From the NCBI GenBank assembly GCA_026418415.1, contig JAOABK010000001.1:7080-71079 (forward strand): a stretch of DNA of 64,000 nt. Direction: 5' to 3'. The position numbers were made by a program, and so were the translations under genes. This stretch comes from Pseudomonadota bacterium (GTDB lineage: Bacteria > CALINM01). The notes beneath the pieces are model-generated. The model was not told the DNA's origin. It worked only from the letters and a program-made list of their open reading frames with translations, and did no database searches. Shown here in pieces: positions 4,183-64,000 of this stretch (position 1 is the first letter of the stretch; every line of letters starts with the position of its first letter).

Positions 4183-4763
4183 CTAAAATTTTATTTATTT
4201 TAATATTTGTCTTATTTTCAAATCCAACCTTTGCAGATATTTATAAATACGAAGATGAACAAGGAGTAATTCATTTTACCGATACGCCAACACATAGTGG
4301 TTTTAAACTCTATCTAAGAACAGGTTTTTTTAACGTAAAGGACTATAAAGACTATTTTAAAAAATATGACCATATAATTTTTAAATATTCAAAGGAATTT
4401 GGGGTAGAATATCCACTTGTTAAAGCTGTGATAAGAGCAGAATCAGGTTATAATCCAAAAGCGGTATCACCAAAAGGAGCCATGGGTTTAATGCAACTAA
4501 TGCCAGAAACTGCAAGTTTGTTTGAATGTGAGAATCCTTTTGATCCTGAGAGCAATATAAGAACAGGCATTAAATATCTAAGTTATCTCTTGAATTATTT
4601 TAAAGGAAATATGGATTTAGCTCTTGCTGCATATAATGCGGGTCCTAAAAATGTAATTAAGTATAATTATTCAATACCTCCGTTTAATGAGACAAGAATG
4701 TATGTTAGAAAAGTAAAAGAGTTTTATAGATTTTATTCTCAAGAAGCAAGTAAAATAAATTGA
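4179..4763 (+). CDS. Lytic transglycosylase (SLT domain) with N-terminal DUF4124-like domain, secreted
   Basis: Signal peptide. SLT catalytic region AESGYNPKAVSPKGAMGLMQLMPETA and AYNAGP. Confidence 0.8.
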   Translation: MTKILFILIFVLFSNPTFADIYKYEDEQGVIHFTDTPTHSGFKLYLRTGFFNVKDYKDYFKKYDHIIFKYSKEFGVEYPLVKAVIRAESGYNPKAVSPKGAMGLMQLMPETASLFECENPFDPESNIRTGIKYLSYLLNYFKGNMDLALAAYNAGPKNVIKYNYSIPPFNETRMYVRKVKEFYRFYSQEASKIN

Positions 4764-18941: not shown

Positions 18942-20582
18942 TTAGCTTTTCAAAATTCTTTTTGCGCTTTCATCAAGGGCATCTGTAATAAATGGTAATC
19001 CAGTTTCTCTTGCAGTTTCACGATTTGCTGCAACAATATCATCTCTTGAAATCTCGCTAAGAGAGAATTTTCTTGCACCTGCTAATAACTGCTGTAATCC
19101 AGCAGAAAGTTTATCCATTAAAGTCCACATTGCAATAGCACCAAAGGGTATGTTTTTCATCTCCTTTTTACCAACTTTTTTCTCTACATCATAATAGGAT
19201 GCAAATATTTCTTCTGGTTTTTCCCCAATTGCAGTAACCGAGGCTGGAAGTTTATCCCAGTTTCCATTGACTTCTGCTCTTCTCTCTGGTTTAAGAACAC
19301 CTTCAATGTTTGAACCGAGGAATCCAGGAATCATAGGGGCTCTTCCCATACATACAAGTTTTACAAAAGGTGCACCTAATGCAATTGCTTTAAAGATATG
19401 GTCTTCTCTTGCGAACCCACCAGCAAAAGCCATATCGACAACGTTTTTACCATTTGTTTTAAGGATTGATGCATATTCGTATGCCTTTGAATGGAGTAGT
19501 ATTGATGGCACACCCCATGTTTCCATCATATTCCAGGGGCTCATGCCAGTACCACCACCTGAGCCATCAATGGTAAGTAAATCTAAACCAGCTTCTGAAG
19601 CAAACTTAATTGACATAGCAAGGGCTTCCATACCATAGGAGCCTGTTTTTAAAGTAATTCTTTTATATCCCAATTTGCGAAGTCTTTTGACCTCTTTGTT
19701 GAAGGCATCCTGTACTTCTGCAACGTCACTTAGATTTGTATAACCAAGTCTACTATGTCTTGCAAAGGAGCGAATTGCTTTATGTTTAAATGCTTCCTGT
19801 ACCTCTGGAAGTGTTGGATCGGGGTCAACGACATATCCTCTTTTTTTCAAGAACAAGGCATATTCTAAATCTGTTACTTGAATTTCACCGCCAATGTCTT
19901 TTGCTCCCTGTCCCCATTTAAGTTCTATTATTACTTTATCACCGTATTTGTCTATAACATATTCAGCAACTCCATTTCTTGTATCTTCAACATTCATTTG
20001 AACGATAATTGCGCCATAACCATCAAAATAACGTAAAAATGTTTCAATTCTGCGATCTAATTCAGGAGCTTTAACAACTTTACCATTTTTAAATTCTGCT
20101 TTCTTATCAACCCCAACCACGTTTTCTCCTACTACTATAGGAAATCCAACTAATGCTGCACCAACAGCAAATGACTCCCAGTACCTTGCAGCAACAAAAG
20201 TGGAGCCTAAAGCCCCAGTCATTACTGGGATTCTTGCCTTTGTCTTTACTTTATTTCCGAAAGTTGTTTCTATGGAAACATTAGGAAAGATACAATCATC
20301 TGGAGTATTTGAAAGCCCTTTTGGAATTCCCTTAGCTCCATAGCAATATCCTTGGATTCTGATGGCATTGTAATTAACACCTATTGCAGTTGTGTTAGCA
20401 CTACCAGCAGTTACATAACCAAAGTCTCTTGGATAGAGAAGTTTTCTCCCCACAAGGCTTGAAAGCCAAGTTTCACATTTACCCGCGCAATCTGCTCTAC
20501 ATAAAGTACAAAGTCCTGATTCTGAGGGATTTCCACGGTTTGTTGTACCTAAAACATCATTTGTTTTTGGCCACTGTATCAT
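18942..20582 (-). CDS. Glutamate synthase domain-2-like FMN/Fe-S oxidoreductase (archaeal-type GltB)
   Basis: N-terminal Cys cluster CTLCRADCAGKC and the FMN-binding GltS domain (VMTGALG, GSGGGTG). Confidence 0.75.
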   Translation of the reverse strand: MIQWPKTNDVLGTTNRGNPSESGLCTLCRADCAGKCETWLSSLVGRKLLYPRDFGYVTAGSANTTAIGVNYNAIRIQGYCYGAKGIPKGLSNTPDDCIFPNVSIETTFGNKVKTKARIPVMTGALGSTFVAARYWESFAVGAALVGFPIVVGENVVGVDKKAEFKNGKVVKAPELDRRIETFLRYFDGYGAIIVQMNVEDTRNGVAEYVIDKYGDKVIIELKWGQGAKDIGGEIQVTDLEYALFLKKRGYVVDPDPTLPEVQEAFKHKAIRSFARHSRLGYTNLSDVAEVQDAFNKEVKRLRKLGYKRITLKTGSYGMEALAMSIKFASEAGLDLLTIDGSGGGTGMSPWNMMETWGVPSILLHSKAYEYASILKTNGKNVVDMAFAGGFAREDHIFKAIALGAPFVKLVCMGRAPMIPGFLGSNIEGVLKPERRAEVNGNWDKLPASVTAIGEKPEEIFASYYDVEKKVGKKEMKNIPFGAIAMWTLMDKLSAGLQQLLAGARKFSLSEISRDDIVAANRETARETGLPFITDALDESAKRILKS

Positions 20583-20652
20583 TTTTGCCTCCCCTATTAT
20601 TTTTTTAGACTATGTATTATATAATAAATAGAATCAATGTAAACTGAAAAAT

Positions 20653-20681
20653 TTGCTTTGTACTTAAAAATCTTTTATAAT
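20653..20681 (+). promoter_or_regulatory. Putative sigma70 promoter for miaB (TTGCTT-N17-TATAAT)
   Basis: -35 at 20653-20658 and -10 at 20676-20681, in the divergent intergenic region upstream of ATG 20692. Confidence 0.35.
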
Positions 20682-20691
20682 CAAAAGGGTT

Positions 20692-22017
20692 ATGGAAAGT
20701 TTTTATATTGAGACTTATGGTTGTCAAATGAATGAAGCTGATAGTGAATATATGGCTTCTATTCTAATGTCCTTAGGCTTTGAAAGGGCTGAGAATCTAA
20801 ATAAAGCTGATATTATACTTGTTAACACGTGTAGTATTAGGGAAAAGGCAGAAAAAAAAGTATTAAGTTTTGTTGGTAGAGTAAGACCCTTTAAAGAACA
20901 GAAAAATATAATTTTAGGTGTCTGTGGTTGTGTAGCAAAACAAGAGGGCGAAAAACTTTTGGGAAAAGCCCCTTATATCGATATGATTTTTGGTCCCTAT
21001 CAGATAAATAAATTACCCGAACTCTTAAGTAGAGTTAAAAGTTTAAAAAAGCCTGTTATAGCCCTCGATGATGAAGCTTGTTTTCAAAGAGATGTTAATG
21101 CTCTTGTTTATCCAGGAGTTAGAGCCTTTATCCCTATAATGCAAGGGTGTAATAACTTTTGTTCATATTGTATAGTACCTTATGTGCGAGGTAGAGAAGT
21201 AAGCAGGGAAGAAGAAGAAATTTTGTATGAGGTTAAGAGATTAGCAAAATTAGGTGTAAAAGAGGTAATGCTATTGGGGCAAAATGTGAATTCCTATGCT
21301 TTGGATAGAGGAGTAAAAGATGGTTTTGTTAGTCTAATAGAGAAAGTGTCTAAAGTAGAAGGGATTGAGAGAATTAGATTTACCACTTCACATCCAAAGG
21401 ATTTAACAGATAGTTTGATTAATGCCTTTGGCTATATAGATAAATTGTGTCCTCATATACATCTTCCCGTTCAATCAGGTTCAAATAAAGTTTTATCTCT
21501 CATGAATAGAAGATATTCGAGAGAAGAATATCTTGAAAAAGTTTATAAATTAAGAAAAGTATGCCCTGAAATATCAATTACCACTGATATCATTGTTGGA
21601 TTTCCAGGCGAAGATGATAGAGATTTTGAAGACACTTTGGATTTATATAAGCAAGTAAATTTTGACAGTGCCTTTTCTTTTAAATTTTCTCCAAGGCCGG
21701 GGACAAAGGCATCTAATATGACAAATATAGTTCCCGAAGAGATTAAACAATCGAGACTTGAAATACTTCAAGAATTACAAAAAAGTATAACCTATGATAA
21801 AAATAAAATGCTAGAAAATAAAATATTGCCTGTTCTTATTGAAAGTAAAAGCAAGAAAAATGAGGGTGAGTTTGTTGGTAGAACACCCTGCTTTAGGGTT
21901 ACAAATATTATTTGTAATAATGTTAAATCATTGGATATGATCGGTCAAATAGTAGATGTAAAAATACTAAAGGGATTGAAAAATTCTCTCAAAGCACAAT
22001 TAGTAAATGGAGATTAG
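20692..22017 (+). CDS. miaB: tRNA-2-methylthio-N6-dimethylallyladenosine synthase (radical SAM methylthiotransferase)
   Basis: MTTase N-terminal domain (YIETYGCQMNEADSE) and radical SAM core CSYCIVP, with a TRAM domain. Confidence 0.9.
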   Translation: MESFYIETYGCQMNEADSEYMASILMSLGFERAENLNKADIILVNTCSIREKAEKKVLSFVGRVRPFKEQKNIILGVCGCVAKQEGEKLLGKAPYIDMIFGPYQINKLPELLSRVKSLKKPVIALDDEACFQRDVNALVYPGVRAFIPIMQGCNNFCSYCIVPYVRGREVSREEEEILYEVKRLAKLGVKEVMLLGQNVNSYALDRGVKDGFVSLIEKVSKVEGIERIRFTTSHPKDLTDSLINAFGYIDKLCPHIHLPVQSGSNKVLSLMNRRYSREEYLEKVYKLRKVCPEISITTDIIVGFPGEDDRDFEDTLDLYKQVNFDSAFSFKFSPRPGTKASNMTNIVPEEIKQSRLEILQELQKSITYDKNKMLENKILPVLIESKSKKNEGEFVGRTPCFRVTNIICNNVKSLDMIGQIVDVKILKGLKNSLKAQLVNGD

Positions 22018-22503
22018 ATGGATGAATTAGTTGAGGTAAGAGTTTTAACACTTCTGTTTGATAATGCTAATCAAACACCTGTTCTACTACTAAAAGAAAA
22101 AAAGGGTAGTAGAGTTCTTCCCATATGGATAGGTGTTTTTGAAGCTCAGTCTATATTGATGGCATTAAAAGGGATAATGTTACACAGACCCCTTACCCAT
22201 GATTTATGTTTAGATATAATTAGTTCTCTTGGTGGAAAATTAAAAAAAGTAGTGATTAACAAAATTGAGAAAGGAACATTCTATGCAGAGCTTATATTGG
22301 AATATAAGAGAAATAAAGTAGTTGTTGATGCAAGACCAAGCGATTCTGTTGCAATGGCTTTAAGAAATAATGTGCCCATATATGTAAACAAAACAGTGAT
22401 TGAGATAGCATCAATTCCTGATGAAGAACACTTAGATGAAAAAAAATGGGAAAATATACTTGAAAATATACCCGATGAAGCTTTTGGAAAATATAGTATG
22501 TAG
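22018..22503 (+). CDS. Bifunctional nuclease (BFN/DUF151) family protein
   Basis: 161 aa with the DUF151 core (PVLLLKE...RVLPIWIG..EA..I ... RPSDSVAMALR). Confidence 0.7.
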   Translation: MDELVEVRVLTLLFDNANQTPVLLLKEKKGSRVLPIWIGVFEAQSILMALKGIMLHRPLTHDLCLDIISSLGGKLKKVVINKIEKGTFYAELILEYKRNKVVVDARPSDSVAMALRNNVPIYVNKTVIEIASIPDEEHLDEKKWENILENIPDEAFGKYSM

Positions 22504-45557: not shown

Positions 45558-46559
45558 ATGAAAATACAAAACTTTTTTTTCTTAATAATCTTTTCAGTAA
45601 TTTTGAGTTGCAGTTATTTGACGGAATCAAAGCCATTATTGAAACAATCTGAGATTGAGAAATTAATCGCTGGAAGAATTGATGCAGAATATATTGGGAC
45701 AGATAATTGTTTAAAAAACTGCCATGAAAAGGGAAATGAACACAAAAAGTTGGCAGATTATTTTAAGAAAAGTGTTCATGCAGAACAAATTAATATAGAT
45801 ACACACCTTCCTCTTGTTAATTGTGAAACATGCCATGGACCTGGTAGCATTGCTGTTGAAAACATAAAGGAAGTCAATGGAAAAAAACAGTGCGACTTTG
45901 ATAGTCTAATTAATATAAAGAAGTTGCCAGCTGAGGCAAAAAATCTAATATGTCTTAAATGTCATACAAAAGCCTCTTCACCTAATCTTGCTATGTGGAG
46001 AGGTTCTAAACATGATTTAGCTGGGGTTTCATGTAGTGATTGTCACAAACTACACAAATCCCCTTTGCAAAAAGTTGAGCATAACCAGCAGATTGAGCTA
46101 TGTTTGGGATGTCATAAGAAAATAAAGGTAGAGATTTCAAGTTTATCAAAGCATCCATTTCATGAAAGAAAAATTATCTGTACAGATTGTCACAACCCCC
46201 ATGGAAGCTTTACAAATAATCTTTTAAAAAAGGAGTCTCTTAGAGAAACTTGTGCTAATTGCCATACTGAAAAAGCTGGTCCCTATATTTTTGAGCATGC
46301 TGATTTGATGGATGATTGTAGTAACTGTCACGTTCCACATGGTTCGGTTAATGATAATCTTCTAAAAGTCAAAGAACCTATATTATGTTTAAGATGTCAT
46401 GAAGGTCATCATTCTTTTAGAAGTACTGCATTAAGCCCTGTCAATAAATTAAAATACTATAATAGATGTACTGACTGTCATCTATCAATTCACGGGACAG
46501 ACACTCCTTCTGGTTCAGCCACAACGTTGCCAAAGAATCAAGGGAGGATGTTAAGGTAG
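45558..46559 (+). CDS. Decaheme c-type cytochrome, MtrA/DmsE/PioA-like (periplasmic/lipoprotein)
   Basis: 333 aa with signal peptide and possible lipobox ILSC. Exactly 10 CxxCH motifs: CLKNCH, CETCH, CLKCH, CSDCH, CLGCH, CTDCH, CANCH, CSNCH, CLRCH, CTDCH. Confidence 0.85.
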   Translation: MKIQNFFFLIIFSVILSCSYLTESKPLLKQSEIEKLIAGRIDAEYIGTDNCLKNCHEKGNEHKKLADYFKKSVHAEQINIDTHLPLVNCETCHGPGSIAVENIKEVNGKKQCDFDSLINIKKLPAEAKNLICLKCHTKASSPNLAMWRGSKHDLAGVSCSDCHKLHKSPLQKVEHNQQIELCLGCHKKIKVEISSLSKHPFHERKIICTDCHNPHGSFTNNLLKKESLRETCANCHTEKAGPYIFEHADLMDDCSNCHVPHGSVNDNLLKVKEPILCLRCHEGHHSFRSTALSPVNKLKYYNRCTDCHLSIHGTDTPSGSATTLPKNQGRMLR

Positions 46560-46565
46560 GGATTT

Positions 46566-48443
46566 ATGAAAAAAAATATCATTCTGGTTTTTTTAATATT
46601 TTTTACATCAAATGTAGTATTAGCAGAAGATATTGTTTATAGAGAGTTTTATTTTGAAACTGGATACAAATTTTATTCAGTAGACGGTGCTGTTGACTTA
46701 GTCAATGAATATAAAGCTTCTCGTTCTTCGCCTTATTTCTCATTAACTTATAAAGATCTCTCTCCAAACGATAAAATAATGTTCGATGCATTAATTAATG
46801 AAAAAGATAATAGAAATATTGATTTACACTATATACACAAGGATTTGCTTAATATTGAATTTAGTAATCGCTCATTAGTACATAATTTAGATCACAAATT
46901 ACTTTTATATCACCCTGAAAAATATGATTTAAATCCTTCCACAAATTACAGGCTTGATTTTTTAAAAAACTATTTCTCTACAAAATATAAACCCTTTAAT
47001 TATCCCTTTCATTTAAAACTGATAATTGAAGATATTGAAAGAGATGGGACGGTACAAAAAATATTTTATGGAGCGAGAAGTTTGGACTTGAATATACTTT
47101 CTTTACCTCCAAACCTAAGAAACAACATCTTTTCGAGGGATAGGCAAATAGGTTTTGAAACAGAAAGAATTATAGCAACAATCGATGGAATTTTAGGAGG
47201 AGTTGGATTAGTTTTTGATCTCACATCTGAAAATTTTACTAACAAACATCATAATTCTCTTGATTATTTATTAAATTATCCAACAATAAATAAAAATGCT
47301 TATGAGTTGAAATTATATAGTAATCTTACCGGTCAGTTGAGTTGGGCTCTTGCTTTAAATCGCAGGGATGCAAAAAATCATAATAGAGATGAAATAGGAA
47401 GAGAAGGGGCAAGTGTAACCCAAACAGATACTGTAGCTACAGTTACTTATTATCCAAAGAAAAATTTAAAATTTACTTTAAAAGTTGGTTACTTAGATAG
47501 GGATCAGGATAATCCAGATACCGTGAGGTTTTTAAATAATGATATAGTTGGTATTAAGGATGCGGTGTCCTATTCTAAGAAAACGGCTGATTTTTCAGCA
47601 TGGTATGAAATATCATCCAAAGCAATTTTAAAATTAAATTTAAAAAGAAAGGAAATAGAAAGAAGCTTCAATTATTTTACACTACCGGAGTATTCTCATA
47701 CAAATACAGGTGTCTTGTCTTTAGAAGGCAGGTTAAATAAAAATTTTTCTTATAAACTTATACAGAAGGTCGAAAATAATCATAATCCATCATATAAAAA
47801 AATGCCCGAGATGCTTTACTCCACAGCAGTTAATCTTAACTATGATTTTAATATATTTTCAGGTATTTACTTACAAAGTGAGTATTTAATGTCAGAAAAT
47901 AATTCTGATATTGGATATTTTCGTAGAAGTAGGGAACACAAACACTTCTTGAACTGTTGGATTAATATAAGCGATGATTTAAATTTAAATTTATATGGTT
48001 ATTATAACAGTGAAAAATTCATATCAAATATTCAGTATGGTAGTTCAAACCCAACGTTTTTTTTAGATAAAGATGTTCCATACTCTTTTACGCTTTACCA
48101 AACAGGGCTAAATATTAGTAAGATTATAAATAAAAAACACAATTTATATGGAGACGTTAGTTATGTTCGTGGATATGGTACTTATTATCCCCATCTCTTT
48201 ATAGGAACAGTTACTAATCCAGGACCACCATTAGTAACTTATAATTTCAATACTTTAGGTTTAGATAGTTTGGCTTCTACGGATTTTTATCAATATGGAA
48301 TTTTATTGGGAAATAGTTATTCAATTGGAAAAAGATCAAGGGTTAGATTAGAAGCAAGCTTGAAGGATCATGTAGATAAAACCAATTATCCTAAAGAGGG
48401 AACTGTTAAGATGGTTTTTGTATCCTGGGAAATGAAATGGTAA
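46566..48443 (+). CDS. Outer-membrane beta-barrel protein, MtrB/PioB-like porin partner of the decaheme cytochrome
   Basis: 625 aa with signal peptide (VVLA-ED), alternating hydrophobic/Tyr-rich strand patterns, and a C-terminal OMP signature ...VFVSWEMKW. It begins 7 nt after the cytochrome stop. Confidence 0.7.
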   Translation: MKKNIILVFLIFFTSNVVLAEDIVYREFYFETGYKFYSVDGAVDLVNEYKASRSSPYFSLTYKDLSPNDKIMFDALINEKDNRNIDLHYIHKDLLNIEFSNRSLVHNLDHKLLLYHPEKYDLNPSTNYRLDFLKNYFSTKYKPFNYPFHLKLIIEDIERDGTVQKIFYGARSLDLNILSLPPNLRNNIFSRDRQIGFETERIIATIDGILGGVGLVFDLTSENFTNKHHNSLDYLLNYPTINKNAYELKLYSNLTGQLSWALALNRRDAKNHNRDEIGREGASVTQTDTVATVTYYPKKNLKFTLKVGYLDRDQDNPDTVRFLNNDIVGIKDAVSYSKKTADFSAWYEISSKAILKLNLKRKEIERSFNYFTLPEYSHTNTGVLSLEGRLNKNFSYKLIQKVENNHNPSYKKMPEMLYSTAVNLNYDFNIFSGIYLQSEYLMSENNSDIGYFRRSREHKHFLNCWINISDDLNLNLYGYYNSEKFISNIQYGSSNPTFFLDKDVPYSFTLYQTGLNISKIINKKHNLYGDVSYVRGYGTYYPHLFIGTVTNPGPPLVTYNFNTLGLDSLASTDFYQYGILLGNSYSIGKRSRVRLEASLKDHVDKTNYPKEGTVKMVFVSWEMKW

Positions 48444-51527: not shown

Positions 51528-54023
51528 TTGGAAAGCTTAAATTTTGTGGGAAAAGTTGTTGAAGTTAATATCGAAGAAGAGGTTAAACAATCCTATCTCG
51601 ACTATGCTATGAGTGTTATTGTTGGAAGAGCTCTTCCCGACGCTAGGGATGGACTGAAGCCTGTTCATAGAAGAATACTTTATGCCATGTATGACATGGG
51701 AAATGAATGGAATAAACCTTATAAAAAATCAGCACGTATAGTTGGAGATGTTATAGGTAAATATCATCCCCATGGTGATCAAGCAGTTTATGATGCAATA
51801 GTTAGAATGGCTCAAGACTTTTCAATGAGAATGCCACTTATTGATGGGCAAGGTAATTTTGGGTCTATTGATGGAGATCCACCTGCTGCTATGCGTTATA
51901 CAGAAGTCAGGATGAAACAGCTCTCTTCAGAATTACTTGCAGATATAGATAAAGATACTGTGGATTTTGTTCCTAATTATGATGGATCTTTAAAAGAACC
52001 AGTTGTTTTACCCGCTAAATTTCCTAATTTACTTGTCAATGGTGCTTCAGGAATAGCAGTCGGAATGGCTACTAATATTCCCACTCACAATCTTGTTGAA
52101 TGTATTGATGCTACAATTTATTGTATTGATAATCCTGATTGCTCAATTGAAGATATCATAAAAATAATGCCAGGCCCCGATTTTCCAACATACGGAATTA
52201 TTTATGACAATGGTGATATATTTAATGCCTATAAAACAGGGCGAGGTACAATAAAAATTAGGGGTAAAATTGAGGAAGAAGCCCTAAAGGGAGATAAGAC
52301 AGCTCTTGTAATAACAGAGTTACCCTATCAGGTTAACAAGGCTGAATTAATAAAAAAAATAGCTGAATTAGCGAGAGATAAAAAAATAGAAGGGATATCA
52401 GACATAAGAGACGAGTCTGATAAAGATGGTATACGTGTTGTGATTGAATTAAAAAGAAATGTGCCGGGTTTAATAATTAAAAACCAGCTTTTTAAATATA
52501 CACAACTTGAACAGTCTTTTGGTATTAATATGATTGCCCTTGTTAAGGGACAACCTAAGCTACTAAATCTAAAAGAACTTATATTTGTTTTCATTGAACA
52601 TAGAAAAGAAGTTGTTACAAGAAGAACACTATTTGATTTAAATGATGCAAAAAAAAGAGCTCATATACTTGAAGGTCTGAAAATAGCCATAGATAATTTA
52701 GACTTAACGATAAAATTGATTAGAGAATCTAAATCACCAAAAGAGGCCAAAACAGCCTTAATGACAAATTTGAGTCTCAGTGAAGAACAGGCTCAAGCAA
52801 TACTTGACATGAAGCTTCAAAGACTAACGAACATGGAAAGGGAAAAGATTATTGAAGATTATGAAAAAATAATAAAGTTGATAGCAGAATTAGAAGGCAT
52901 ACTAAAAGATGAAAGGAAAATTTATGATATTATTAAAAAAGAGTTAGAAGAGATAAAAAATAAATATGGTGATAAAAGAAGAACAATAATAGAAGCACAA
53001 CAAATTGAACTTGACAAAGAAGATTTGATCCCCGAAGAACAGGTTGTAGTAACGATTACCCATAGGGGATTTATAAAAAGAACACCAGTAAATGAATATA
53101 AGAAACAAAAAAGAGGTGGCAAAGGGAAAATCGGGTTAACACTAAAGGAAGGGGATTTTATAAGAGATCTTTTCATAGCCTCAACCCATGATTATATTCT
53201 TGCTTTTACTAACTTAGGAAGAATGTACGTAAGCAAAACCTATGAATTTCCTGAAGCAGATAGGACCTCCTATGGAAAAATTATTACTAACTATTTCCCT
53301 TTGAAAGAGAACGAAAAGGTAATTAACTTAGTTTCAGTTAGTACTTTTGATACTGATAAAGAAATATTTTTTGCTACAGAAAAGGGAATTGTAAAAAAGA
53401 CCGCACTGAGCTTATTTAAAAATGTAAGAAAGACTGGAATTAATGCTATAAACATACATGATGATGATTTTCTTGTGTCTGCTGCTATAGTAGGAATTGA
53501 TGAAGATATAATACTCTCCACTAAAAATGGAAAGAGTATAAGATTTGGAGTCGAGCAAGTAAGAAGCATGGGAAGAACTGCTGCTGGAGTTAAGGGAATT
53601 GAGTTGAGTGAAGGAGATAAGGTTGTCTCTATGGATGTTATAACCAAGGATGATGATAGCTCACTTTTAACTGTGACAACTTTAGGGTATGGCAAAAGAA
53701 CTAAGATCAAAGAGTATAGAGTTCAAAATAGAGGGGGAAAAGGTATTTTGACTGTCAGACTGACAGAAAAAAATGGAAATGTTATGGGAGTTTTACACGT
53801 AAAAGATGATGATGAGATATTGCTCATTTCAAGTAGTGGAAAAATTGTAAGATTGTCGGTCAAAAGTAGCATACCTGAATATGCAAGAAATAGCCAGGGT
53901 GTAAAACTAATAGATTTACAGGGCGATGAGAGGATAGTGAGCATTGGTAAGATAATAGAGAAGGAAGAAATCGAAGAAAATGAGACAGAAGGGGAAAATG
54001 GCGATGAAAATAAACTATTATAA
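51528..54023 (+). CDS. gyrA: DNA gyrase subunit A
   Basis: Active-site region [26 protein letters not shown] and C-terminal beta-pinwheel repeats. Probable TTG start after GGAGGGG. Confidence 0.95.
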
Positions 54024-55324: not shown

Positions 55325-55645
55325 TTATATAAAAATCTAATTTTTATAATTCAGATATTGAATCGCTTTATTTTCTAATTTTTTATTTCAATAATTTTGC
55401 TTTTCAGGGTATAAATTTTAAAAATTTTATTAAAACGTTAAAATTATAAAAATTTAATTGACAAATTTTAATTATAGAAGTAGGATTGCGATTAGAAATG
55501 TTTAATATAATAAAAAAGATATCTCAACCCTTTTTAGTATCTGTTAAATTTTTACCGTTTTTTAACAATAATATTGATCAAGCTGCTTTTTTTAGTTTTC
55601 AAATTTTACAAAAAATTAAATTCAACGTATTTAGTGAGGAAAAAT

Positions 55646-58600
55646 GTGAAACCTAAAAGTTTAAAATTTTTATTTTTATTTTTTTTTATAGTTTTCTTTG
55701 TTAAAACTGCCTTTAGTGTTGATCCACCACATGATAGATTTAGCTGTAATAATTGTCATGGAAACAATTTGATCTCAACTAAAAATGGTGGACTGGATTT
55801 AAGCCGGATGTGTTTAGACTGTCATAAGCCCGGTGGCTATGGAAAGCCTGTAAACACAAAACCTGCAAACCCCTATGGTACAGCTGATTTAATTATACAA
55901 AGGCACAAAGGAACGGAGCATGCCTTTTTAGGTGGTGACAACAATCCTTTAGCGAAAGCGGTTAGCCCCTCTGGTGACGAGTTTTATGGTCATAATGTAA
56001 CTGGAGTTATAACATGCGCTTCCTGTCACAATCCCCATGTTCAAAATAATGAAGATGGAAAGTTTTTACGAGTGAAATTAGGTAAAACAGACGAACTATG
56101 TTTAAGATGTCATGTAGATATGAACCAAAAACCTAATGGATACTCCCATCCAGTGAACGTTTCTCTCAATAAAGATGGTTTCTTTGTTCTGCCTCAGTTT
56201 AGTTCCTTAAGAAAGGTTTATGAGAAAAAGGAAAATAATTTAACCTGTACAGTATGCCATAAAACACATAATGGTTTTTCAAAAATAACATCTTATGGTC
56301 ATTCTGGTGATGGCTTTCTTGGAAGAACTGAAATTGATGAATGGTTGTGTTTACAGTGTCATAAAAAACCTGTTCATGGAAATTCAAAGGGGAGGCCAGA
56401 GCCTTTATGCAAAGATTGCCACACAATGCATAACCCAGGGAATAACATCAAATTGATAAAAAATAGTATAAACTTTAACGGTAATACAAAGGAAGTTAAT
56501 TTTAAAAACAATTCTTTAGCGACTGACTTTTATAATTTAGAGGGCAGTGGTGTTTGTCAGGTTTGTCATAGAAACACAAAATACTTTAAAAACTATACTG
56601 CATCTAAGTTTATAGTTACAGGAACATCCATTCACAACCCAGATAATCTAATTTGTACAGAATGTCATTCCCATGGGAATTTGGTTAATTTTCAAGCTCC
56701 AAAGGCTAAAGAAAAGCCAAATTTTGAAAAAGATGCTTTTAAAGGATGTGCGGGATGTCATGGTTTTCCACCTACATTAAATTCTTTAGGTAATAATGGA
56801 CTTGCAAGAAATGAAGGTGGAACGGGTTCTATGAATGTTGGTGCTCATATAAAACATGCAACAGAAACTGGTTATTCATTTGCTTGTAATACATGCCATA
56901 AGGGTGGAATGCCATTAACACCAATATACGATAAGAAGATTCAAATTGGTTTCGAGCTTTTTAATGGGCTTTTAAAAGGAGGTTTTTTTGAGGGAAGGAG
57001 CTCTATTAAAAATGGTTATAGTTTTTCAAGTGGTAATGGGGAAACAAATGTCTCTAATGGTAGCACAAGCAAATGCACAAACATATACTGCCATAGCAAT
57101 GCGAATCCTATCGACAAAGCAACAGTTTACAAAGAGATAGGGTGGAATAATAAAAATATTTCATGTAGGGATTGTCATAATGATATTACATATCCCGATG
57201 GTCTAAGTAGTTATCATAAAAAACATTTACAAAGTGGCTATAACTATAAATGCGAGGATTGTCATAAAGAAACAGTAATAGGAAATAATGAAATTAAGAA
57301 TAAGACCAAGCATGTAAATAGTATAAAAGACGTTGTATTTAAGCTAACAGGCGATTATGGTGTTGATAAGTCTTGTACTGTTTATTGTCATAGCGATGGA
57401 AAGGGAGGCCAACCCGAACAACAGGTTAGATGGAATATTAGTTTAACAATATCCTGCGATTCATGTCATAGAGGCAGGCTTAATGATTTTAAACAAATGA
57501 CTTCTTTTGGTCATAATAGGTTGGTGAGTAAAAACTGGATTAGAAAATATCCTTGCTATTATTGCCATGATGATACTGTTGATGAAAATGGAAATATAAA
57601 AAGTTATACAAAACATATAAACCAGATTAAAGATGTCAAAATGAGTTCTAAATGGGCAATCCCAGGAAGACCAGAACCAGCATACATAACATCTACAAAG
57701 GTTTGTACTAATGTATATTGCCACAGTGATGGGACTACAAATCCAGAAGCAGTTAAACCATTTTCATGGAATGAGGGAAGGGCTAATTGTGATACCTGTC
57801 ATGGACATCCGAGAGGTACTTGTAATAATGCAGGTTGTCATGATGGCATAGCGAGAGAATTAAAGATAGATTGGAAACCCGAGGACATATGGAAATCTTC
57901 TGTGCCAATGTATCCAAATGAAGGAGCTGGAAAGCCAAGAGCTAACTCTCATGCAAGACATATAGAAACTAATTTTACCTGTGATAAATGTCACGCAACT
58001 ACAATAATTGGTGGAGATTGTTTAAGTTGTCATAAAAATGGTATCCCTCCTGGAAGCATGACAGAGGCACCTCATCTTAATGCGAATTATCATGTAAATG
58101 GTAGGAAGGACGTTGTATTCAAAGATGGTGGTGTTTATAACCCTATAACTAAGACATGTTCGAATACTAATTGTCATACTGGTGGTAGCGATCCACAGTG
58201 GGGTGGATCAGTTAATAGCGCTGTTATATGCCTTAGCTGTCATGGAACAACAGGTGGCGATATTGATAATTTTGATGCCTTCGATGGTACTCAAGCTAAG
58301 ATAAACCTAACACAATGGGCTGTCGCAGGACACGGAAGAAAAGCATCTCATGGCAATTATCCTTCAGGAAATCCTCCCGCAAATTTTCCGGGAAATCCCT
58401 GTTGGTATTGTCATGATAATACAGTGCTTCACAAGAAAGCTGATAATCCCTATAGGTTAAAATTACATAATCAGTTTGAAAGAAGGTTTGATAAAGAGTG
58501 TGTTTACTGTCATATGGAGAAGAAAGAAGAAGAGTGTTTAAAGTGCCATAATAGCGTGGAATCACTTGCACCACAGATGAATTCAGCATCTGTTGTAGCA

Positions 58601-60904
58601 AAACATTCAAATAATATATATCTTAATGGATGTCTTAACTTACAATGCCATCCTAATGATGACAAAATTCACAAAACAGGTTCTGGCTTCTGGAATTACA
58701 CCTTGAAGGTACAGATTAAAAAACAGTATGTGTTTATGGGTGTATGTCTTAAATGCCATGATGATGATAGTGAGGGGCAATGTGAATCCTGTCATGCAAT
58801 TGATAATAAGCATAAGTTGGGTTATGATCCTGGTACTGGATTTATAAAACCACAAAAAGCAAAAGCTGCTGGTACTCACTATGGTTATAAGCATTATCTA
58901 CAGGGTTCTACTAAGGGAGGAAAATTTTGTTGGGATTGTCATGATCCTCATGGTGATACAAATATTTATATGATACACGATAAAGTAGCTGTTGAAACAG
59001 ATGGTATATTCGGAAAACCAGTTCAAAGAGCGAGTGTTGTATTTACAAGAAAACAAAGTGGCAGTGATTATGTGAAAATAAACGCACCCTATAATGGTAT
59101 TTGCAATGTTTGTCACAGCTATGGAAGCCAGCATTACAGAAAAGATGCTGGAGATGGACACCAGTTAGGAAGGGTTTGTACAGAATGTCATAATCACAGA
59201 TTTACCGATAGTCATTCTTCAGGACAACAATGTAATACCTGTCATTTAAACAAACCTATACCAAGACACTCATCCTTCGGACTACCAAGAGATTGCACAA
59301 AATGCCACAATGGTACTATTGGAAGAAGAACAAATGTTATGGCACAGTTAAAAGGAAATTCTCACCATATTCAGAATGTAAACGTAACAAACAGACATTG
59401 TTATGCTTGTCATTGGGAAGCAACCCCTGAAGGGATTGTGAATAATGATTATCATGAAGGCTACAATACTAAAACCCATTCTTCAAGGAAGGATGCAAAA
59501 GTAGATCTTGTTGTTTGGGGACCCAATAAAAGACCAACGGTTTATAAACTCTATTCTTCCGCGGTAGTATTCGTTGCAATTAGTAGTATTGGAACTCCAA
59601 GAGAAAGGGAGCAGGTAGGGAATATTTCTCAGCATTGTTTGAGCTGTCATAGTGATAAAAATAATGATACACAGCCATTTAATGATTGTAAAACACCCAA
59701 TCAATATGCATGGGATAGAAGCAGTATCGAAAGTAGATTTAAGAATAAAGAAACAACTAAATGGGGTAAGTATAATACTTCAGGGGCAGCAAAGAAGGAT
59801 ATAAATAAAGCACTATCTGCCCATGGAAATGCAAAAGCAAATGCTGGAGGCTTTGATCCAGCAAATGGCTTGGATGGAACGATTCCTAATACAAGAAATG
59901 GAAATGCAAACGTGGAATGCTTTGATTGTCATAATTCTCATGGTTCATTAGTAGGTGGAAACACTTCGAGTTATATATCCTTTAATGGAACAAAAAATGG
60001 AGGTATTTTAAAAGATACAACAGCAGGAAGAAGTGGTTATCCAATAACATATAGAGCACAGGGTAAGAGTGATGGTATTAATCCCTATTCTGTTCAAGCA
60101 GGACAATGCTTTGATTGTCACATGACGGAAAATGGTGGAGTTACAACACCTTGGGGGTACAAGTCAACCTTTGGAGCAACTCAACCTATTATGGGATATT
60201 ATGATTCAATCAAATTTGGTGAAGGAGATTCTGGTGCGAAGAAGAGATTTAGTTTTAGAAATCCCCTTAATATAAAGGGAGGGCATTTTAAAGCAAGTTC
60301 TAATCTTGTTAATACACCAGATAAACAAATAGAAGGATTGTGTACTAATTGCCATGATCCCCATGGTGTAAGCCCATCCTTTGGTGAAGATAGATTTTAC
60401 GCAGTTCCATTGCTCAAAGGGACATGGCTCACATCTCCTTATAAAGAAGATATTCCACCAACTCATGGCCCAACAGGTGGTAGTTATTTATATGATAGTC
60501 CTCAAAATCATACTAATCTTGATTCAACTTCTGTATTTCCAAATGGTAAAGCAGATGAACCAGAAGAAAAGTTTGCAGGTCTATGTCTTAAGTGCCATCC
60601 AAAAAACAAACTAACTGATGGAGTAAATCAGAATACTGCATGGAAGAGCCTTGATAGGGTTCATGAGACTGTGAAAGGTTGGGGAAAGAATACTAAGCAT
60701 AATTTTGTATGCTCAAAGTGTCATGCACCTCATACAAGCTTATTACCCAGACTCATGGTAACTAACTGTATTGATTATAACCACAGAGGAATGGTAGCTT
60801 CTGGTGGGTATCCAAATGGTGGTCGAGGTGGTAGTTATCCACAATGTCATCCTCAAGATGGGAGCTGGCCTAAGAGTTATTGGAACTGGAAGACTCCATG
60901 GTAA
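55646..60904 (+). CDS. Giant secreted multiheme c-type cytochrome (~1,753 aa, ~36 CxxCH + 6 CX3-4CH motifs)
   Basis: GTG 55646 follows GAGGA, with a Sec signal peptide (FFVKTAFS|VDPP). I counted 36 canonical CxxCH plus six C-x(3,4)-CH variants (e.g. CTNIYCH, CTVYCH, CTNVYCH). The track ORF starts further upstream at 55574. Confidence 0.85.
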   Translation: MKPKSLKFLFLFFFIVFFVKTAFSVDPPHDRFSCNNCHGNNLISTKNGGLDLSRMCLDCHKPGGYGKPVNTKPANPYGTADLIIQRHKGTEHAFLGGDNNPLAKAVSPSGDEFYGHNVTGVITCASCHNPHVQNNEDGKFLRVKLGKTDELCLRCHVDMNQKPNGYSHPVNVSLNKDGFFVLPQFSSLRKVYEKKENNLTCTVCHKTHNGFSKITSYGHSGDGFLGRTEIDEWLCLQCHKKPVHGNSKGRPEPLCKDCHTMHNPGNNIKLIKNSINFNGNTKEVNFKNNSLATDFYNLEGSGVCQVCHRNTKYFKNYTASKFIVTGTSIHNPDNLICTECHSHGNLVNFQAPKAKEKPNFEKDAFKGCAGCHGFPPTLNSLGNNGLARNEGGTGSMNVGAHIKHATETGYSFACNTCHKGGMPLTPIYDKKIQIGFELFNGLLKGGFFEGRSSIKNGYSFSSGNGETNVSNGSTSKCTNIYCHSNANPIDKATVYKEIGWNNKNISCRDCHNDITYPDGLSSYHKKHLQSGYNYKCEDCHKETVIGNNEIKNKTKHVNSIKDVVFKLTGDYGVDKSCTVYCHSDGKGGQPEQQVRWNISLTISCDSCHRGRLNDFKQMTSFGHNRLVSKNWIRKYPCYYCHDDTVDENGNIKSYTKHINQIKDVKMSSKWAIPGRPEPAYITSTKVCTNVYCHSDGTTNPEAVKPFSWNEGRANCDTCHGHPRGTCNNAGCHDGIARELKIDWKPEDIWKSSVPMYPNEGAGKPRANSHARHIETNFTCDKCHATTIIGGDCLSCHKNGIPPGSMTEAPHLNANYHVNGRKDVVFKDGGVYNPITKTCSNTNCHTGGSDPQWGGSVNSAVICLSCHGTTGGDIDNFDAFDGTQAKINLTQWAVAGHGRKASHGNYPSGNPPANFPGNPCWYCHDNTVLHKKADNPYRLKLHNQFERRFDKECVYCHMEKKEEECLKCHNSVESLAPQMNSASVVAKHSNNIYLNGCLNLQCHPNDDKIHKTGSGFWNYTLKVQIKKQYVFMGVCLKCHDDDSEGQCESCHAIDNKHKLGYDPGTGFIKPQKAKAAGTHYGYKHYLQGSTKGGKFCWDCHDPHGDTNIYMIHDKVAVETDGIFGKPVQRASVVFTRKQSGSDYVKINAPYNGICNVCHSYGSQHYRKDAGDGHQLGRVCTECHNHRFTDSHSSGQQCNTCHLNKPIPRHSSFGLPRDCTKCHNGTIGRRTNVMAQLKGNSHHIQNVNVTNRHCYACHWEATPEGIVNNDYHEGYNTKTHSSRKDAKVDLVVWGPNKRPTVYKLYSSAVVFVAISSIGTPREREQVGNISQHCLSCHSDKNNDTQPFNDCKTPNQYAWDRSSIESRFKNKETTKWGKYNTSGAAKKDINKALSAHGNAKANAGGFDPANGLDGTIPNTRNGNANVECFDCHNSHGSLVGGNTSSYISFNGTKNGGILKDTTAGRSGYPITYRAQGKSDGINPYSVQAGQCFDCHMTENGGVTTPWGYKSTFGATQPIMGYYDSIKFGEGDSGAKKRFSFRNPLNIKGGHFKASSNLVNTPDKQIEGLCTNCHDPHGVSPSFGEDRFYAVPLLKGTWLTSPYKEDIPPTHGPTGGSYLYDSPQNHTNLDSTSVFPNGKADEPEEKFAGLCLKCHPKNKLTDGVNQNTAWKSLDRVHETVKGWGKNTKHNFVCSKCHAPHTSLLPRLMVTNCIDYNHRGMVASGGYPNGGRGGSYPQCHPQDGSWPKSYWNWKTPW

Positions 60905-60917
60905 AGGAGACAGACTA

Positions 60918-63900
60918 ATGATTAAACGTTTGAACATAGCAGTTCTACTAATTTTATTTTTAACCAGTTCACTTTTTGCTTCTGGTGGTGAACAGATATG
61001 TAAAAAATTAGATATAAATAATGTTGCATATCCCACTGCTTCGGTCAGGGATTTTGAAGGCAACATAATAGTTGCAGGATATAAGAGCATATCAATGAGT
61101 GATGAATCTTTTTATATTGCTAAGATAAGTTCTGATTGTTCTGGCATTTTATGGAGTTATGAAGAAAATCCTTCCAACCAATCAGATAGATTAGTTTCAG
61201 TAACAACAGATTTTGAGGGTAATGTAATAGCAGTGGGATATATATTATATGGTTCAAACTTTGATATAAAGATTTTAAAATTGAATAAAGAAACGGGAAG
61301 TATTGTTTGGACTGAAAGGTATAATGGTTTAGCAAATCTTGATGATTTTCCAGTGGCTGTTAAAGTCGATAGCGTAGGAAATGTTTATGTTGCTGGATAT
61401 TCAAGGAATACATCGGGAAACGATGATTTTCTGTTAATAAAATATTCGAAAAATGGTGGTCTTCCATTGTGGGTTCAAACTTTTAATAGCGCTTATAACA
61501 AGGATGATAGAGCCACATCTCTTGATATAAAGTCTGACAGTGTTATCATCGCAGGATATTCAGATAACGGATCAGATCTTGATATGCTTCTTATAAAATA
61601 TGCCCTAACGGGAGAATTGCTTTGGAGTAGAAGATACATAGGTAATGCTAACAACGAAGATAGAGCAGTAGGAGTTAAAATTGACGATAATGGAGATGTA
61701 TTATTAACTGGATTTACAACCAATAGCAATGGAAATAAAGATATCTATATTGGGAAATACTTCAAAGATACAGGAGTTCCAATATGGGAGAAAATTTACA
61801 ATGGTGGTTATGATGACGAACCTTACTCTATAGCAATTGGGGAGGGTAATAATGTTTATCTTACAGGTTATACATGGACTATTGAACATCACACACAACT
61901 AACCACAATGAAAATATCCTCTTTAAATGGTGAGATTATTTGGCAAAGAAATTTTTCCCTATCAGAGGATATAACGTCAGTGGGGATTGATATTACTGTT
62001 GAGAATGAAGAAGATGTTTATGTAACAGGATATTTGGTTAGGGGTACAAACTATAATATTCTTACTTTAAAATATCACAAAATTTTGGGTAATCAAGTAT
62101 GGTCTGTAGAATATGATGGTGATGCAGGTAAAAATGATAGACCTATTGGTATTTTTATAGGTTTAGATGGTAAGGTAATTGTAGCTGGGTGGTCAGAAAC
62201 AGGTATTAATGAACCTCATTTTTTAATCCTTAAGTATGAGCCGGGTAGCATAAATGCACCAACTAATTTAACTGCAGAAGTACTTTCTAACTCACAAGTT
62301 AGATTAAGTTGGAGTGATAACTCTAACAATGAAGATTCATTCAAAATTGAAAGAAAAACTGGTGATTTAGGTAATTGGCAAGAAATTGCATCTCTATCAG
62401 CAAATACAATAAACTATATAGATAACTCAGTCTCTGCAAATACAAAATATTATTATAGAGTAAGAGCCTACAGCACTACCTTTGGTTATTCTCATTATAG
62501 TAATGAAACCAAAGTCATTACAACCGTTATAACCTTTGAACAACCAACTTGGGTGTATACGTATAATGGCTCTGGGAATAATGATGATTATGCTAATGCT
62601 ATAGCTATAGGTCCAGATAGTAATCCCGTTATTGCAGGATTTAGCTTTTCTTCAATCTCTGGCTTTGATTATGTAACTATGAAGTTGAATAGAAGCAATG
62701 GGGCTTTAATCTGGTCAAGGTCCTATGATGACCCCGAAAATGATACAGATATAGCAACATGTATAGATGTTGATAATAACAATGATGTTATTGTTTCTGG
62801 TTTTGCTTCTCTATTTAATCCTAATGTTGGATACAATACAAACGATATAATGACAATAAAGTATTCGTCAAATGGAGCTTTGCTGTGGAGTGATGCTTTT
62901 AGTGGTCCAGGCAATAATGATGATAGATCAGTTGCAATATCTGTTTCTAAAGATGCTTCGGGCAATCCCTTTATTCTTGGTTATGGTAAAAACGCATCAG
63001 GGAATGACGACATTTATCTTATAAAATATAATGCTTCTGGAACAAGACAGTGGTCAAAAATTTACAATGGCGGTGGAGATGACTACCCATCTTCATTTGT
63101 GATAGATAAGAATGGCGATGTTATTATAGCAGGTTATGTTACAAGAGGTGGTAACTTTGATTGGTATGTTAGTAAGTATAAAAACAGTGATGGTACCATC
63201 TTATGGACCTATTTTTATGATGAAGTCGGGCTTGAAGATAAGGCGCTCTCAATTACAGCGGATAAAAATGGTGATATATTTGTAACTGGTTTTATATCAA
63301 AGTCTGGTAGTATTAAAGATATTCAGTTGATAAAACTTTCTGGCGGTAGTGGTGGGCTTTTGTGGCAGAAAAAGTTTAACAGAAACTCAGGGGATAATGA
63401 GGCAATAAAGGTTTTAATAGACCCAGTTGATGGTGATATAGTTATTGCGGGTTCAATAACAAGCATAGAAGGAGATAAGGATATATATACTGCGAAGTTT
63501 AAAAATAGCGATGGTTCATTAATTTGGGAAAGGACGGTTTCAAGACTTTCAATAAACGATATTTTGGCTGATGCAGTTGTTGATATTAGCGGTAATGTCT
63601 GTCTTGGAGGTAATTCTGGACAATGGGAAGGACAGGATATCGTGGCAATAAAGTTTGATCATGAAGGAAATCTTTTAGGTGCTTCATTATATAACGGTGT
63701 GGCCAATAGACAGGATGGTGTTGAGAAAATAGCAGTTAATAGATTTGGAGAAACATTCTTAGTTGGTTATACCACTACTGCTAATGGCGACACAGATTTT
63801 CTTATATTCAAATGCGGTTTAGATCCTATTCAAGTTCCAACACCTTTAAGTGTAACAGCTTCATATAATTCTTTGGTCATTAATTGGGTAGATAATTCTT

Positions 63901-64000
63901 TTTCTGAGCTGGGTTATCGAATTGAGAGAAAAACAGGGCCATGCTCAAGCAATGATAATTTTCAAGTTATTACACAAACACCTCCTAATGTAACATCCTA
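60918..64000 (+). CDS. Large secreted beta-propeller (SBBP-repeat) / fibronectin-III surface protein, 3'-partial (runs off window)
   Basis: Not in the ORF track because no stop is reached. ATG 60918 follows AAGGAGA, with signal peptide MIKRLNIAVLLILFLTSSLFASG. More than 20 repeats of ...GN(V/I)Y(V/L)(T/A)GY... D(I/F)(L/Y)LIKY...G...W and at least two FN3-like modules (LSWSDNS..YYYRVRAY). Confidence 0.7.
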   Translation, partial: MIKRLNIAVLLILFLTSSLFASGGEQICKKLDINNVAYPTASVRDFEGNIIVAGYKSISMSDESFYIAKISSDCSGILWSYEENPSNQSDRLVSVTTDFEGNVIAVGYILYGSNFDIKILKLNKETGSIVWTERYNGLANLDDFPVAVKVDSVGNVYVAGYSRNTSGNDDFLLIKYSKNGGLPLWVQTFNSAYNKDDRATSLDIKSDSVIIAGYSDNGSDLDMLLIKYALTGELLWSRRYIGNANNEDRAVGVKIDDNGDVLLTGFTTNSNGNKDIYIGKYFKDTGVPIWEKIYNGGYDDEPYSIAIGEGNNVYLTGYTWTIEHHTQLTTMKISSLNGEIIWQRNFSLSEDITSVGIDITVENEEDVYVTGYLVRGTNYNILTLKYHKILGNQVWSVEYDGDAGKNDRPIGIFIGLDGKVIVAGWSETGINEPHFLILKYEPGSINAPTNLTAEVLSNSQVRLSWSDNSNNEDSFKIERKTGDLGNWQEIASLSANTINYIDNSVSANTKYYYRVRAYSTTFGYSHYSNETKVITTVITFEQPTWVYTYNGSGNNDDYANAIAIGPDSNPVIAGFSFSSISGFDYVTMKLNRSNGALIWSRSYDDPENDTDIATCIDVDNNNDVIVSGFASLFNPNVGYNTNDIMTIKYSSNGALLWSDAFSGPGNNDDRSVAISVSKDASGNPFILGYGKNASGNDDIYLIKYNASGTRQWSKIYNGGGDDYPSSFVIDKNGDVIIAGYVTRGGNFDWYVSKYKNSDGTILWTYFYDEVGLEDKALSITADKNGDIFVTGFISKSGSIKDIQLIKLSGGSGGLLWQKKFNRNSGDNEAIKVLIDPVDGDIVIAGSITSIEGDKDIYTAKFKNSDGSLIWERTVSRLSINDILADAVVDISGNVCLGGNSGQWEGQDIVAIKFDHEGNLLGASLYNGVANRQDGVEKIAVNRFGETFLVGYTTTANGDTDFLIFKCGLDPIQVPTPLSVTASYNSLVINWVDNSFSELGYRIERKTGPCSSNDNFQVITQTPPNVTS

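Follow-up and report, generated by a model that had tools for sequence, protein, structure and literature searches.

The 3' end of a stretch of Pseudomonadota DNA raised the question of what protein is encoded directly behind a giant multihaem c-type cytochrome, and whether the two proteins belong together. The window, by which we mean the whole stretch of 64,000 nucleotides (nt) analysed (NCBI GenBank assembly GCA_026418415.1, contig JAOABK010000001.1, positions 7,080 to 71,079 of the forward strand), ends within the open reading frame (ORF) in question. A preliminary description, made from the letters of the window, had taken this ORF for a surface protein of SBBP beta-propellers and fibronectin type III (FN3) modules that might position the cytochrome outside the cell. 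Our results indicate that the ORF is the 5' ~40% of a gene (39% of the length expected) whose product is a probably non-catalytic protein of ~2,600 amino acids (aa), hereafter called the partner. It is almost certainly a large secreted modular SBBP-propeller/FN3 protein, and very probably the dedicated partner of the ~42-haem cytochrome. The overall reading that we favour, to which we give about an even chance, is that of a dedicated non-catalytic giant partner that tethers or organises the cytochrome outside the cell.

The cytochrome gene ends with TAA at 60902-60904 and the partner gene opens with ATG at 60918-60920 on the plus strand, leaving a gap of 13 nt. The frame is free of stop codons across 1027 codons from this ATG to the last base of the window; the chance of such a run at the local base composition is ~1e-38. 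The preliminary description was right that an ORF of more than 3 kb, preceded by a good ribosome-binding site, opens 13 nt past the cytochrome stop, and that it is absent from the mechanical ORF list solely because it reads off the end of the window. No terminator-like hairpin was found by a scan of the 13-nt gap. The short gap, the ribosome-binding site and the lack of a terminator in the gap suggest an operon, from which we infer that the partner gene is co-expressed with the upstream cytochrome gene. The promoter and terminator scan gave matches at chance level in this AT-rich DNA (promoter-like, 49 observed versus 40.8 expected), and its best sigma-70-like match is a weak candidate for the operon promoter (Table 1). 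The sole RNA match of an Rfam scan was one tRNA, distant from the locus. A 115-aa antisense ORF lies across the cytochrome/partner junction (60743-61090, minus strand) and is probably a chance ORF in AT-rich DNA; comparable antisense ORFs in both genes cluster between loci only because the sense strand is conserved.

The first 21 residues of the partner (MIKRLNIAVLLILFLTSSLFA, followed by SGG) have the n-, h- and c-regions of a Sec (type I) signal peptide without a lipobox Cys. This call, which agrees with the preliminary description, was made by eye and not by a dedicated predictor; the AlphaFold model places a helix at residues 2-15, followed by a linker of low pLDDT. In the Pfam scan of the window fragment SBBP (PF06739) passed its gathering threshold with 32.1 bits versus 20.5, which bears out the proposed SBBP content, and orthologs scored 54-61 bits. 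The delta-60 repeat TIGR02608 passed in the NCBIfam scan (102.3 bits versus a cut-off of 76.5), and the propeller repeats DUF5122 and PQQ_2 were also matched by Pfam. A blade anchor, ..GN-hydrophobic-Y-V-x-G-Y.., recurred every ~53 residues, eight times at aa 35-445 and eight times at aa 560-960. The AlphaFold2 model, built from a 40-sequence alignment (A1), was all-beta with a mean pLDDT of 87.6, and comprised 32 strands at aa 26-440, a 7-strand sandwich, a further 32 strands at aa 545-965 and the beginning of one more sandwich. According to the model there are two 8-bladed propellers in the window, with one FN3 domain after each; closure of the rings was deduced from the strand count (2 x 32 strands) and not from coordinates.

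Two details of the preliminary description had to be changed. It had counted dozens of SBBP repeats, and there are 16 blades in the window. It had also described them as interspersed with FN3 modules; an FN3 domain does follow each propeller, but the window contains only two, most of the array lying beyond its edge according to the ortholog. The Pfam evidence for FN3 was divided. FN3 (PF00041) at aa 447-532 scored 22.8 bits, below the cut-off of 25, whereas the model has a 7-strand sandwich there (aa 449-534), the fn3 score of the full-length ortholog L001 is 164.5 bits, and a profile seeded on the first FN3 domain of the window found 15 copies in L001. No CxxCH motif was found in the window fragment, and no cytochrome family scored there or in the orthologs scanned; therefore the partner would not conduct electrons itself.

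The remainder of the protein was deduced from other loci, which were numbered L001 to L084. L001, a metagenome-assembled genome (MAG) labelled Deltaproteobacteria, was the sole genome match. Its partner is 2625 aa long, has the same N-terminus as the window partner and is 68% identical to the fragment over all 1027 residues with zero gaps; its cytochrome is 73% identical to that of the window, and the best metagenome match is 58% identical. A look-up of the exact cytochrome sequence, taken from GTG 55646, gave no record, the protein search gave no copy of the window partner, and the genome of the window was absent from every collection searched. The L001 partner consists of a signal peptide, a propeller, an FN3 domain, a second propeller, six FN3 domains, a DUF2341/LamG-like lectin-type module (aa ~1535-1860), eight FN3 domains and a tail. 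Beyond the part corresponding to the window it thus adds 14 further FN3 domains, the DUF2341/LamG-like module and a short Cys-containing tail of ~25 residues, which ends in ..TTPSWTSGDDVCE and follows the pattern ..TP-x-aromatic-x3-4-D-x-C-x. A C-x-G-x-x-C loop is found in most of the FN3 domains of L001.

An ORF without a visible end would also be explained if the gene were decaying or truncated, its stop or frameshift lying just past the edge of the window. Only 39% of the expected length is visible, and split partners, in which the propeller ORF is apart from the FN3 ORF, occur in L003, L004, L022 and L062. The 1027 open codons, the gap-free alignment to L001 and the intact ribosome-binding site and signal peptide make this explanation extremely improbable.

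An exact tandem duplication of a two-FN3 unit in the L001 partner (aa 2050-2228 and 2243-2421) indicates a recent expansion of the stalk. Among genomes the partner varies from 1.9 to 4.5 thousand aa, whereas the cytochromes stay at 1.6-1.8 thousand aa, so a tether is suggested rather than a one-to-one sheath along the haem chain. Stalk length thus appears to change quickly in evolution.

The cytochrome itself belongs to the GSu_C4xC__C2xCH family and contains 36 CxxCH, 5 CxxxxCH and 1 CxxxCH motifs (~42 haems). The mechanical ORF starts at TTG 55574, but the start is probably GTG 55646, preceded by the ribosome-binding site GAGG (55636-55639), which gives a protein of 1752 aa with a clean signal peptide, matching orthologs of 1753 aa. 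Of its 87 cysteines, 84 are in haem motifs and two in an invariant C-X25-CH near the C-terminus; the one left is C1348, in the context ..NDCKTPNQYAWD.. The invariant pair lies at aa 1708-1735 (60767-60850), and its spacer is longer in the Pelobacteraceae ortholog, to which the window cytochrome is 53% identical. It may be an unconventional haem site with a long loop, like that of MccA (CX15CH), which would make 43 haems.

The pairing of the two genes was examined from both sides. In the protein search the nearest full-coverage relatives of the partner, 34-37% identical, came from MAGs of Pelobacteraceae and Geobacteraceae, and on every contig examined (L002-L004) they adjoin, directly 3', a giant GSu_C4xC__C2xCH cytochrome. 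From the cytochrome side, a search with an alignment (A2) of the C-terminal 553 residues retrieved 80 metagenome loci. Partners were detected by phmmer with the window propellers against six-frame ORFs on the same strand, starting at most 400 nt before or 1500 nt after the point where the cytochrome match ends. A partner was found directly downstream in 45 of the 66 metagenome loci having at least 1.2 kb of downstream sequence. The other 21 were partnerless; two that were inspected hold cytochromes of other size and architecture, and in the tree the partnerless cytochromes fall outside the partner-bearing clade. Gene order and strand were the same, with a short gap or none, in L001, L002 (Pelobacteraceae), L003, L004, the 45 metagenome loci and two cultured Desulfuromonadia. 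One of these, Geobacter sp. DSM 9736 (LT896716.1, with the genes at ~1.52-1.54 Mb), has a 1710-aa cytochrome, a 10-nt gap and a 4034-aa SBBP/fn3/DUF2341/Laminin_G_3 protein; the other, Citrifermentans pelophilum, has a 1618-aa cytochrome followed by a 4508-aa partner.

When loci L001-L084 with enough downstream sequence were split by the residue at the position of C1348, a partner was present in 48 of 49 loci with Cys, Tyr or Phe and in none of 10 with Gly or Thr. In the sole exception, L044, a small ORF is inserted and the sequence extends only 2.2 kb downstream. That ORF (1558-1938) encodes 126 aa directly after the cytochrome and is putatively a four-helix bundle, as judged by eye. The preliminary description had taken the pairing for likely operonic, and by these counts it is no accident. 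The GC content of the loci ranges from 0.36 to 0.66, which indicates that the pair persists across divergent genomes. Two or more complete modules stand head to tail on the same contig in several cases (L015 and L081 on PJEL010000237.1; L024 and L025 on Ga0209212_1002511; also L012, L016, L023 and L029), which indicates that the pair was duplicated as a unit. Within this cytochrome clade the pairing is, by these comparisons, near-obligate. As a module we define here, outside any curated family, a giant CxxxxCH cytochrome of the Cys/Tyr-signature clade with a propeller/FN3 partner that ends in the Cys tail. The window locus has the partner directly downstream on the same strand and carries the clade signature at Cys1348; the Cys tail is present in its L001 ortholog.

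The residue at this position also varied with the end of the partner. Full-length partners carry a tail of the form ..S-x-Y-S...TP-x-[YFW]-x3-4-[DN]-x-C-x, with the Cys 1-4 residues from the end. A Cys at the cytochrome position was combined with a Cys tail in 14 non-redundant loci. Where the partner tail lacks Cys the cytochrome has Tyr or Phe; in four complete loci of one clade (L070, L072, L073 and L075) Tyr goes with tails ending in GDNV[ENGA]P. Tyr in the cytochrome together with a Cys tail was found in none of the loci compared, and in partnerless paralogs the position is taken by Gly, Ser, Thr or some residue other than Cys. The Fisher probability for the 2x2 table (14, 1, 0, 4) is ~0.001 if phylogeny is ignored. 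The tail was retained when other parts of the partner changed. L037 (10001-17601) has a variant module: its cytochrome is a paralog in which the lone Cys is retained, and its partner, of 1782 aa, has two Laminin_G_3 domains, DUF2341 and MopE-like Cu-binding motifs instead of propellers but the usual final FN3 domain and Cys tail. The tail was also kept where the last domain is not FN3 (L010, L036 and L080). The ~25-residue motif is itself conserved; the last 105 residues of the partners are conserved at 37% versus 32-35% in neighbouring stalk segments, a slight excess and no strong argument. The co-variation, together with retention of the tail despite changes of head or last domain, points to a direct physical attachment of the partner to the cytochrome through the tail. 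A disulfide tether between the tail Cys and C1348 is possible, though we consider it somewhat doubtful.

These patterns also bear on the explanation that the partner is a general adhesin or biofilm-matrix protein, which would bind surfaces or polysaccharide, be useful on insoluble electron acceptors and be merely co-regulated with a cytochrome that it does not touch. Many bacterial surface proteins unlinked to cytochromes contain SBBP-propeller, FN3 and LamG-type modules, most of the relatives at 25-30% identity belong to Bacteroidota and Ignavibacteria and are sorted by the type IX secretion system (T9SS), and the heads are interchangeable, as in L037. A general adhesin would hardly be expected to adjoin the cytochrome in nearly every locus of one clade and in none of the paralogs, or to be duplicated tandemly with it as a whole module, and without contact there is no easy explanation for the Cys/Cys-tail co-variation. 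We therefore regard a merely co-regulated adhesin as unlikely.

Tethering was also weighed against a role in secretion, folding or assembly, in which the propellers would bind the 42-haem chain while it is unfolded or newly matured, much as BamB-like propellers assist assembly, and be absent from the final structure. The tight coupling of the gene behind the cytochrome and the conserved pairing are what such a factor would show, and a propeller family of BamB, PQQ_2 (PF13360), passed in the Pfam scan (55.3 bits versus 27.6). The BamB equivalog (TIGR03300), however, scored 25 bits versus a cut-off of 285, and the size and architecture differ from those of BamB, a lipoprotein of ~380 aa with a single 8-bladed propeller. 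A chaperone of 2,000-4,500 aa with 15 or more FN3 domains would be implausibly costly, and L037 does without the propellers but keeps the tail. An assembly factor is thus quite improbable.

The closest solved fold to the propellers is that of CylK, the Friedel-Crafts alkylating enzyme of Cylindrospermum (PDB 7ROO/7FH6; Foldseek E 2e-20), with tetrathionate hydrolase and quinoprotein dehydrogenases lower in the list. It is conceivable, therefore, that the partner is an enzyme, redox or other, with a cofactor or substrate bound in its 8-bladed propellers (compare PQQ dehydrogenases, cd1 nitrite reductase, tetrathionate hydrolase and CylK), and that these exchange electrons with the cytochrome; eight is the blade number of PQQ dehydrogenases. 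CylK, a soluble enzyme, has an additional N-terminal domain. The partner shares 19% identity with it, and neither a catalytic family nor a CylK-type N-terminal domain scored in the Pfam and NCBIfam scans; CylK in turn has no FN3 domains or cytochrome context. A PQQ-dependent dehydrogenase was rejected, as no such family scored in the same scans, the fragment has no adjacent Cys-Cys and the fold match was weak (E ~1e-7). The invariant and near-invariant residues listed for the alignment occupy repeating positions of the blade motif (G, W, D, Y), as expected of a scaffold, and in L037 the head is swapped for lectin-type domains. We consider an enzymatic role very improbable.

Hundreds of relatives at 25-30% identity were found by protein search. 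The ~53-60-residue blade D..GN.YV.GY......D....KY...G...W is common to the partner and to SBBP/delta-60 proteins such as the LipL53-family lipoproteins of Leptospira and the T9SS-sorted proteins of Bacteroidota. The partner is unlike known SBBP proteins in its two tandem 8-bladed propellers, its FN3 stalk with DUF2341/LamG, its Cys tail and its near-obligate pairing with a cytochrome. Membership of the LipL53 family was rejected (NF047494, 108.9 bits versus 400; signal peptide without a lipobox Cys), as was that of the T9SS-sorted proteins (PF18962 gave no score in the full-length L001 ortholog or in L016, L037 and L070). The propeller-plus-FN3 model as a whole matched the ectodomains of ROS1 and Sevenless (Foldseek E 1e-13 to 1e-11), followed by generic propellers. 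ROS1 and Sevenless are animal proteins with propellers of the YWTD type and 8-11% identity, and the likeness is architectural only, with no homology of function implied.

Among electron-transfer systems the nearest comparison is with the extracellular multihaem systems of Geobacter and its relatives, among them giant cytochromes with CxxxxCH/CxxCH domains and outer-surface cytochromes anchored to matrix or polysaccharide; anchoring of cytochromes in the matrix of G. sulfurreducens is established as needed. The window cytochrome is likewise a member of the GSu_C4xC__C2xCH family, and the pair occurs in Geobacteraceae, Pelobacteraceae and Citrifermentans; no G. sulfurreducens protein was among the 120 cytochrome matches listed. 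In methane-oxidising archaea giant multihaem cytochromes are fused to S-layer-type domains in one polypeptide of the archaeal envelope. The idea is the same here, a very large cytochrome with a non-redox surface scaffold, but the two are separate polypeptides, possibly joined by a disulfide, in a diderm bacterium. An FN3 domain of a Geobacter outer-surface redox protein (OmpB, a multicopper oxidase) was proposed to mediate attachment (PMC5566968). In a 2024 survey of Desulfuromonadia cytochromes the words 'propeller' and 'fibronectin' are both absent (PMC11492766). A full-text literature search, outside which most subscription journals fall, found no description of the cytochrome/propeller-FN3 pairing and no described system with a dedicated propeller-FN3 partner of a cytochrome.

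A role of the partner as a cell-surface scaffold or adhesin for the cytochrome is well motivated, and we infer it from the domains and the pairing. The protein would be exported by its Sec signal; 15 or more FN3 domains of ~3.5-4 nm each would make it, by estimate, far longer than the periplasm is wide. The C-terminal tail, known from the orthologs, would attach to the cytochrome, in which case a disulfide with C1348 is the probable link. The array of FN3 domains would serve as a spacer or stalk of variable length, and the N-terminal double propeller with the LamG-like module as a putative binding head. Through this head the complex may be fixed to an extracellular target, for example polysaccharide of the matrix, the cell surface, another cell or a mineral. 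In this role the partner would keep the cytochrome tethered or organised outside the cell and would itself carry no electrons. It is tempting to go further and suppose a covalent, disulfide-linked two-protein appendage, an undescribed class of dedicated tether that keeps the cytochrome at a set distance, within the extracellular matrix or on a target surface, by an evolvable stalk with swappable heads (SBBP propellers or LamG lectin-type domains), but we consider this rather unlikely.

Several points weigh against the tether. The window contains the 5' part of the gene only, and the C-terminal 60% was deduced from L001. Contact between the two proteins is read from sequence patterns. No known sorting signal was found: the orthologs scanned have no T9SS C-terminal domain, the signal peptide has no lipobox, and the 40-residue tails listed show no hydrophobic anchor. 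The Cys co-variation amounts to about three independent events on a rough tree, and shared ancestry could yield it. L016 is an exception: its cytochrome bears the Cys, but the partner ORF behind it has no tail at its end and may be split. Cysteine counts of the partners are a mixture of odd and even, so parity is uninformative on an unpaired Cys.

Table 1. Positions in the window of the cytochrome gene, the partner gene and the elements associated with them.
Feature	Position	Strand	Basis or remarks
Best sigma-70-like promoter match, TTGACA-17-TAGGAT (weak candidate operon promoter)	55458..55486	+	In the 320-nt AT-rich rlmH/cytochrome spacer
Giant multihaem c-type cytochrome, 1752 aa, with signal peptide and GSu_C4xC__C2xCH domains	55646..60904	+	Family scans, motif count
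TGT codon of Cys1348 (..PFND-C-KTPNQYAWD..)	59687..59689	+	Only cysteine outside the haem motifs and the C-X25-CH pair
Ribosome-binding site of the partner, AGGAG	60905..60909	+	8 nt 5' of the partner ATG
Partner start codon and predicted Sec-type signal peptide, aa 1-21	60918..60980	+	Sequence by eye, model helix, L001
Predicted propeller 1, eight SBBP/delta-60 blades, aa 26-440, 32 beta strands, period ~53 aa	60993..62237	+	Pfam/NCBIfam, repeat anchors, model
Predicted FN3 domain 1, aa 447-535, 7 strands	62256..62522	+	Pfam (below cut-off), model, ortholog profile
Predicted propeller 2, eight SBBP/delta-60 blades, aa 545-965, 32 strands	62550..63812	+	PQQ_2/DUF5122 matches here, repeat anchors, model
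Start of predicted FN3 domain 2, aa ~975-1027, cut by the window edge	63840..64000	+	Model, L001 alignment

Other neighbours were sought by all-against-all clustering of ORFs from the 84 loci. The only other recurrent neighbour was a secreted CarboxypepD_reg-type (transthyretin-like) protein of ~260-300 aa, encoded directly 3' of the partner (L001, 17830-18597; also L010, L036, L046, L064 and L069). A ~700-aa protein with CarboxypepD_reg and a NosD-like beta-helix sometimes follows it. The CarboxypepD_reg protein also occurs beside some partnerless paralogous cytochromes. It may be a third component of the module, and its gene would be expected just past the window edge. In L001 an NHL-repeat protein and a cytochrome of 296 aa (2912-4685) are encoded before the pair, and minor pilins (GspH/FimT-like, PilW and PilX; 19795-22189) after it; none of these was among the recurrent neighbour clusters.

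A second group of genes lies 7 kb 5' of the giant cytochrome (45558-48443, plus strand). A 333-aa lipoprotein-like cytochrome (..VILSC.., 9 CxxCH, NrfB/DmsE-type Pfam matches) is followed by a 625-aa protein with a signal peptide, no Pfam match, a strand-like alternating pattern and the end ..EMKW. The two look like a porin-cytochrome conduit of the outer membrane. Genes for an ABC substrate-binding protein and a methyl-accepting chemotaxis protein come after them. The GC content of the window is 31%, and GyrA (gyrA, 51528-54023) is 72-91% identical to MAG contigs and 58-60% identical to the nearest named relatives (Thermodesulfobacteriota MAGs), which indicates that the host belongs to an uncultured, unusually AT-rich lineage.

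How large extracellular cytochromes are kept in position and prevented from being lost is poorly understood, and the matter bears on mineral respiration, electroactive biofilms and corrosion. Such partners are at present labelled only as 'fibronectin type III domain-containing' or 'SBBP repeat-containing'. The locus is a member of a widespread, tightly conserved two-gene module, sometimes with the small CarboxypepD_reg-type gene added. The disulfide hypothesis is falsifiable, as it names one cysteine in each protein and a swappable head, and Geobacter sp. DSM 9736 and Citrifermentans pelophilum are cultured hosts in which it is open to test. Taken alone, the partner gene looks like any other of a known repeat family. 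As a conserved module with a Cys/Cys-tail signature, the pair seems to represent a variant of surface organisation for extracellular electron transfer that has not been described before. If the tether is real, it would explain for one metal-respiring lineage how very large outer-surface cytochromes stay in place.

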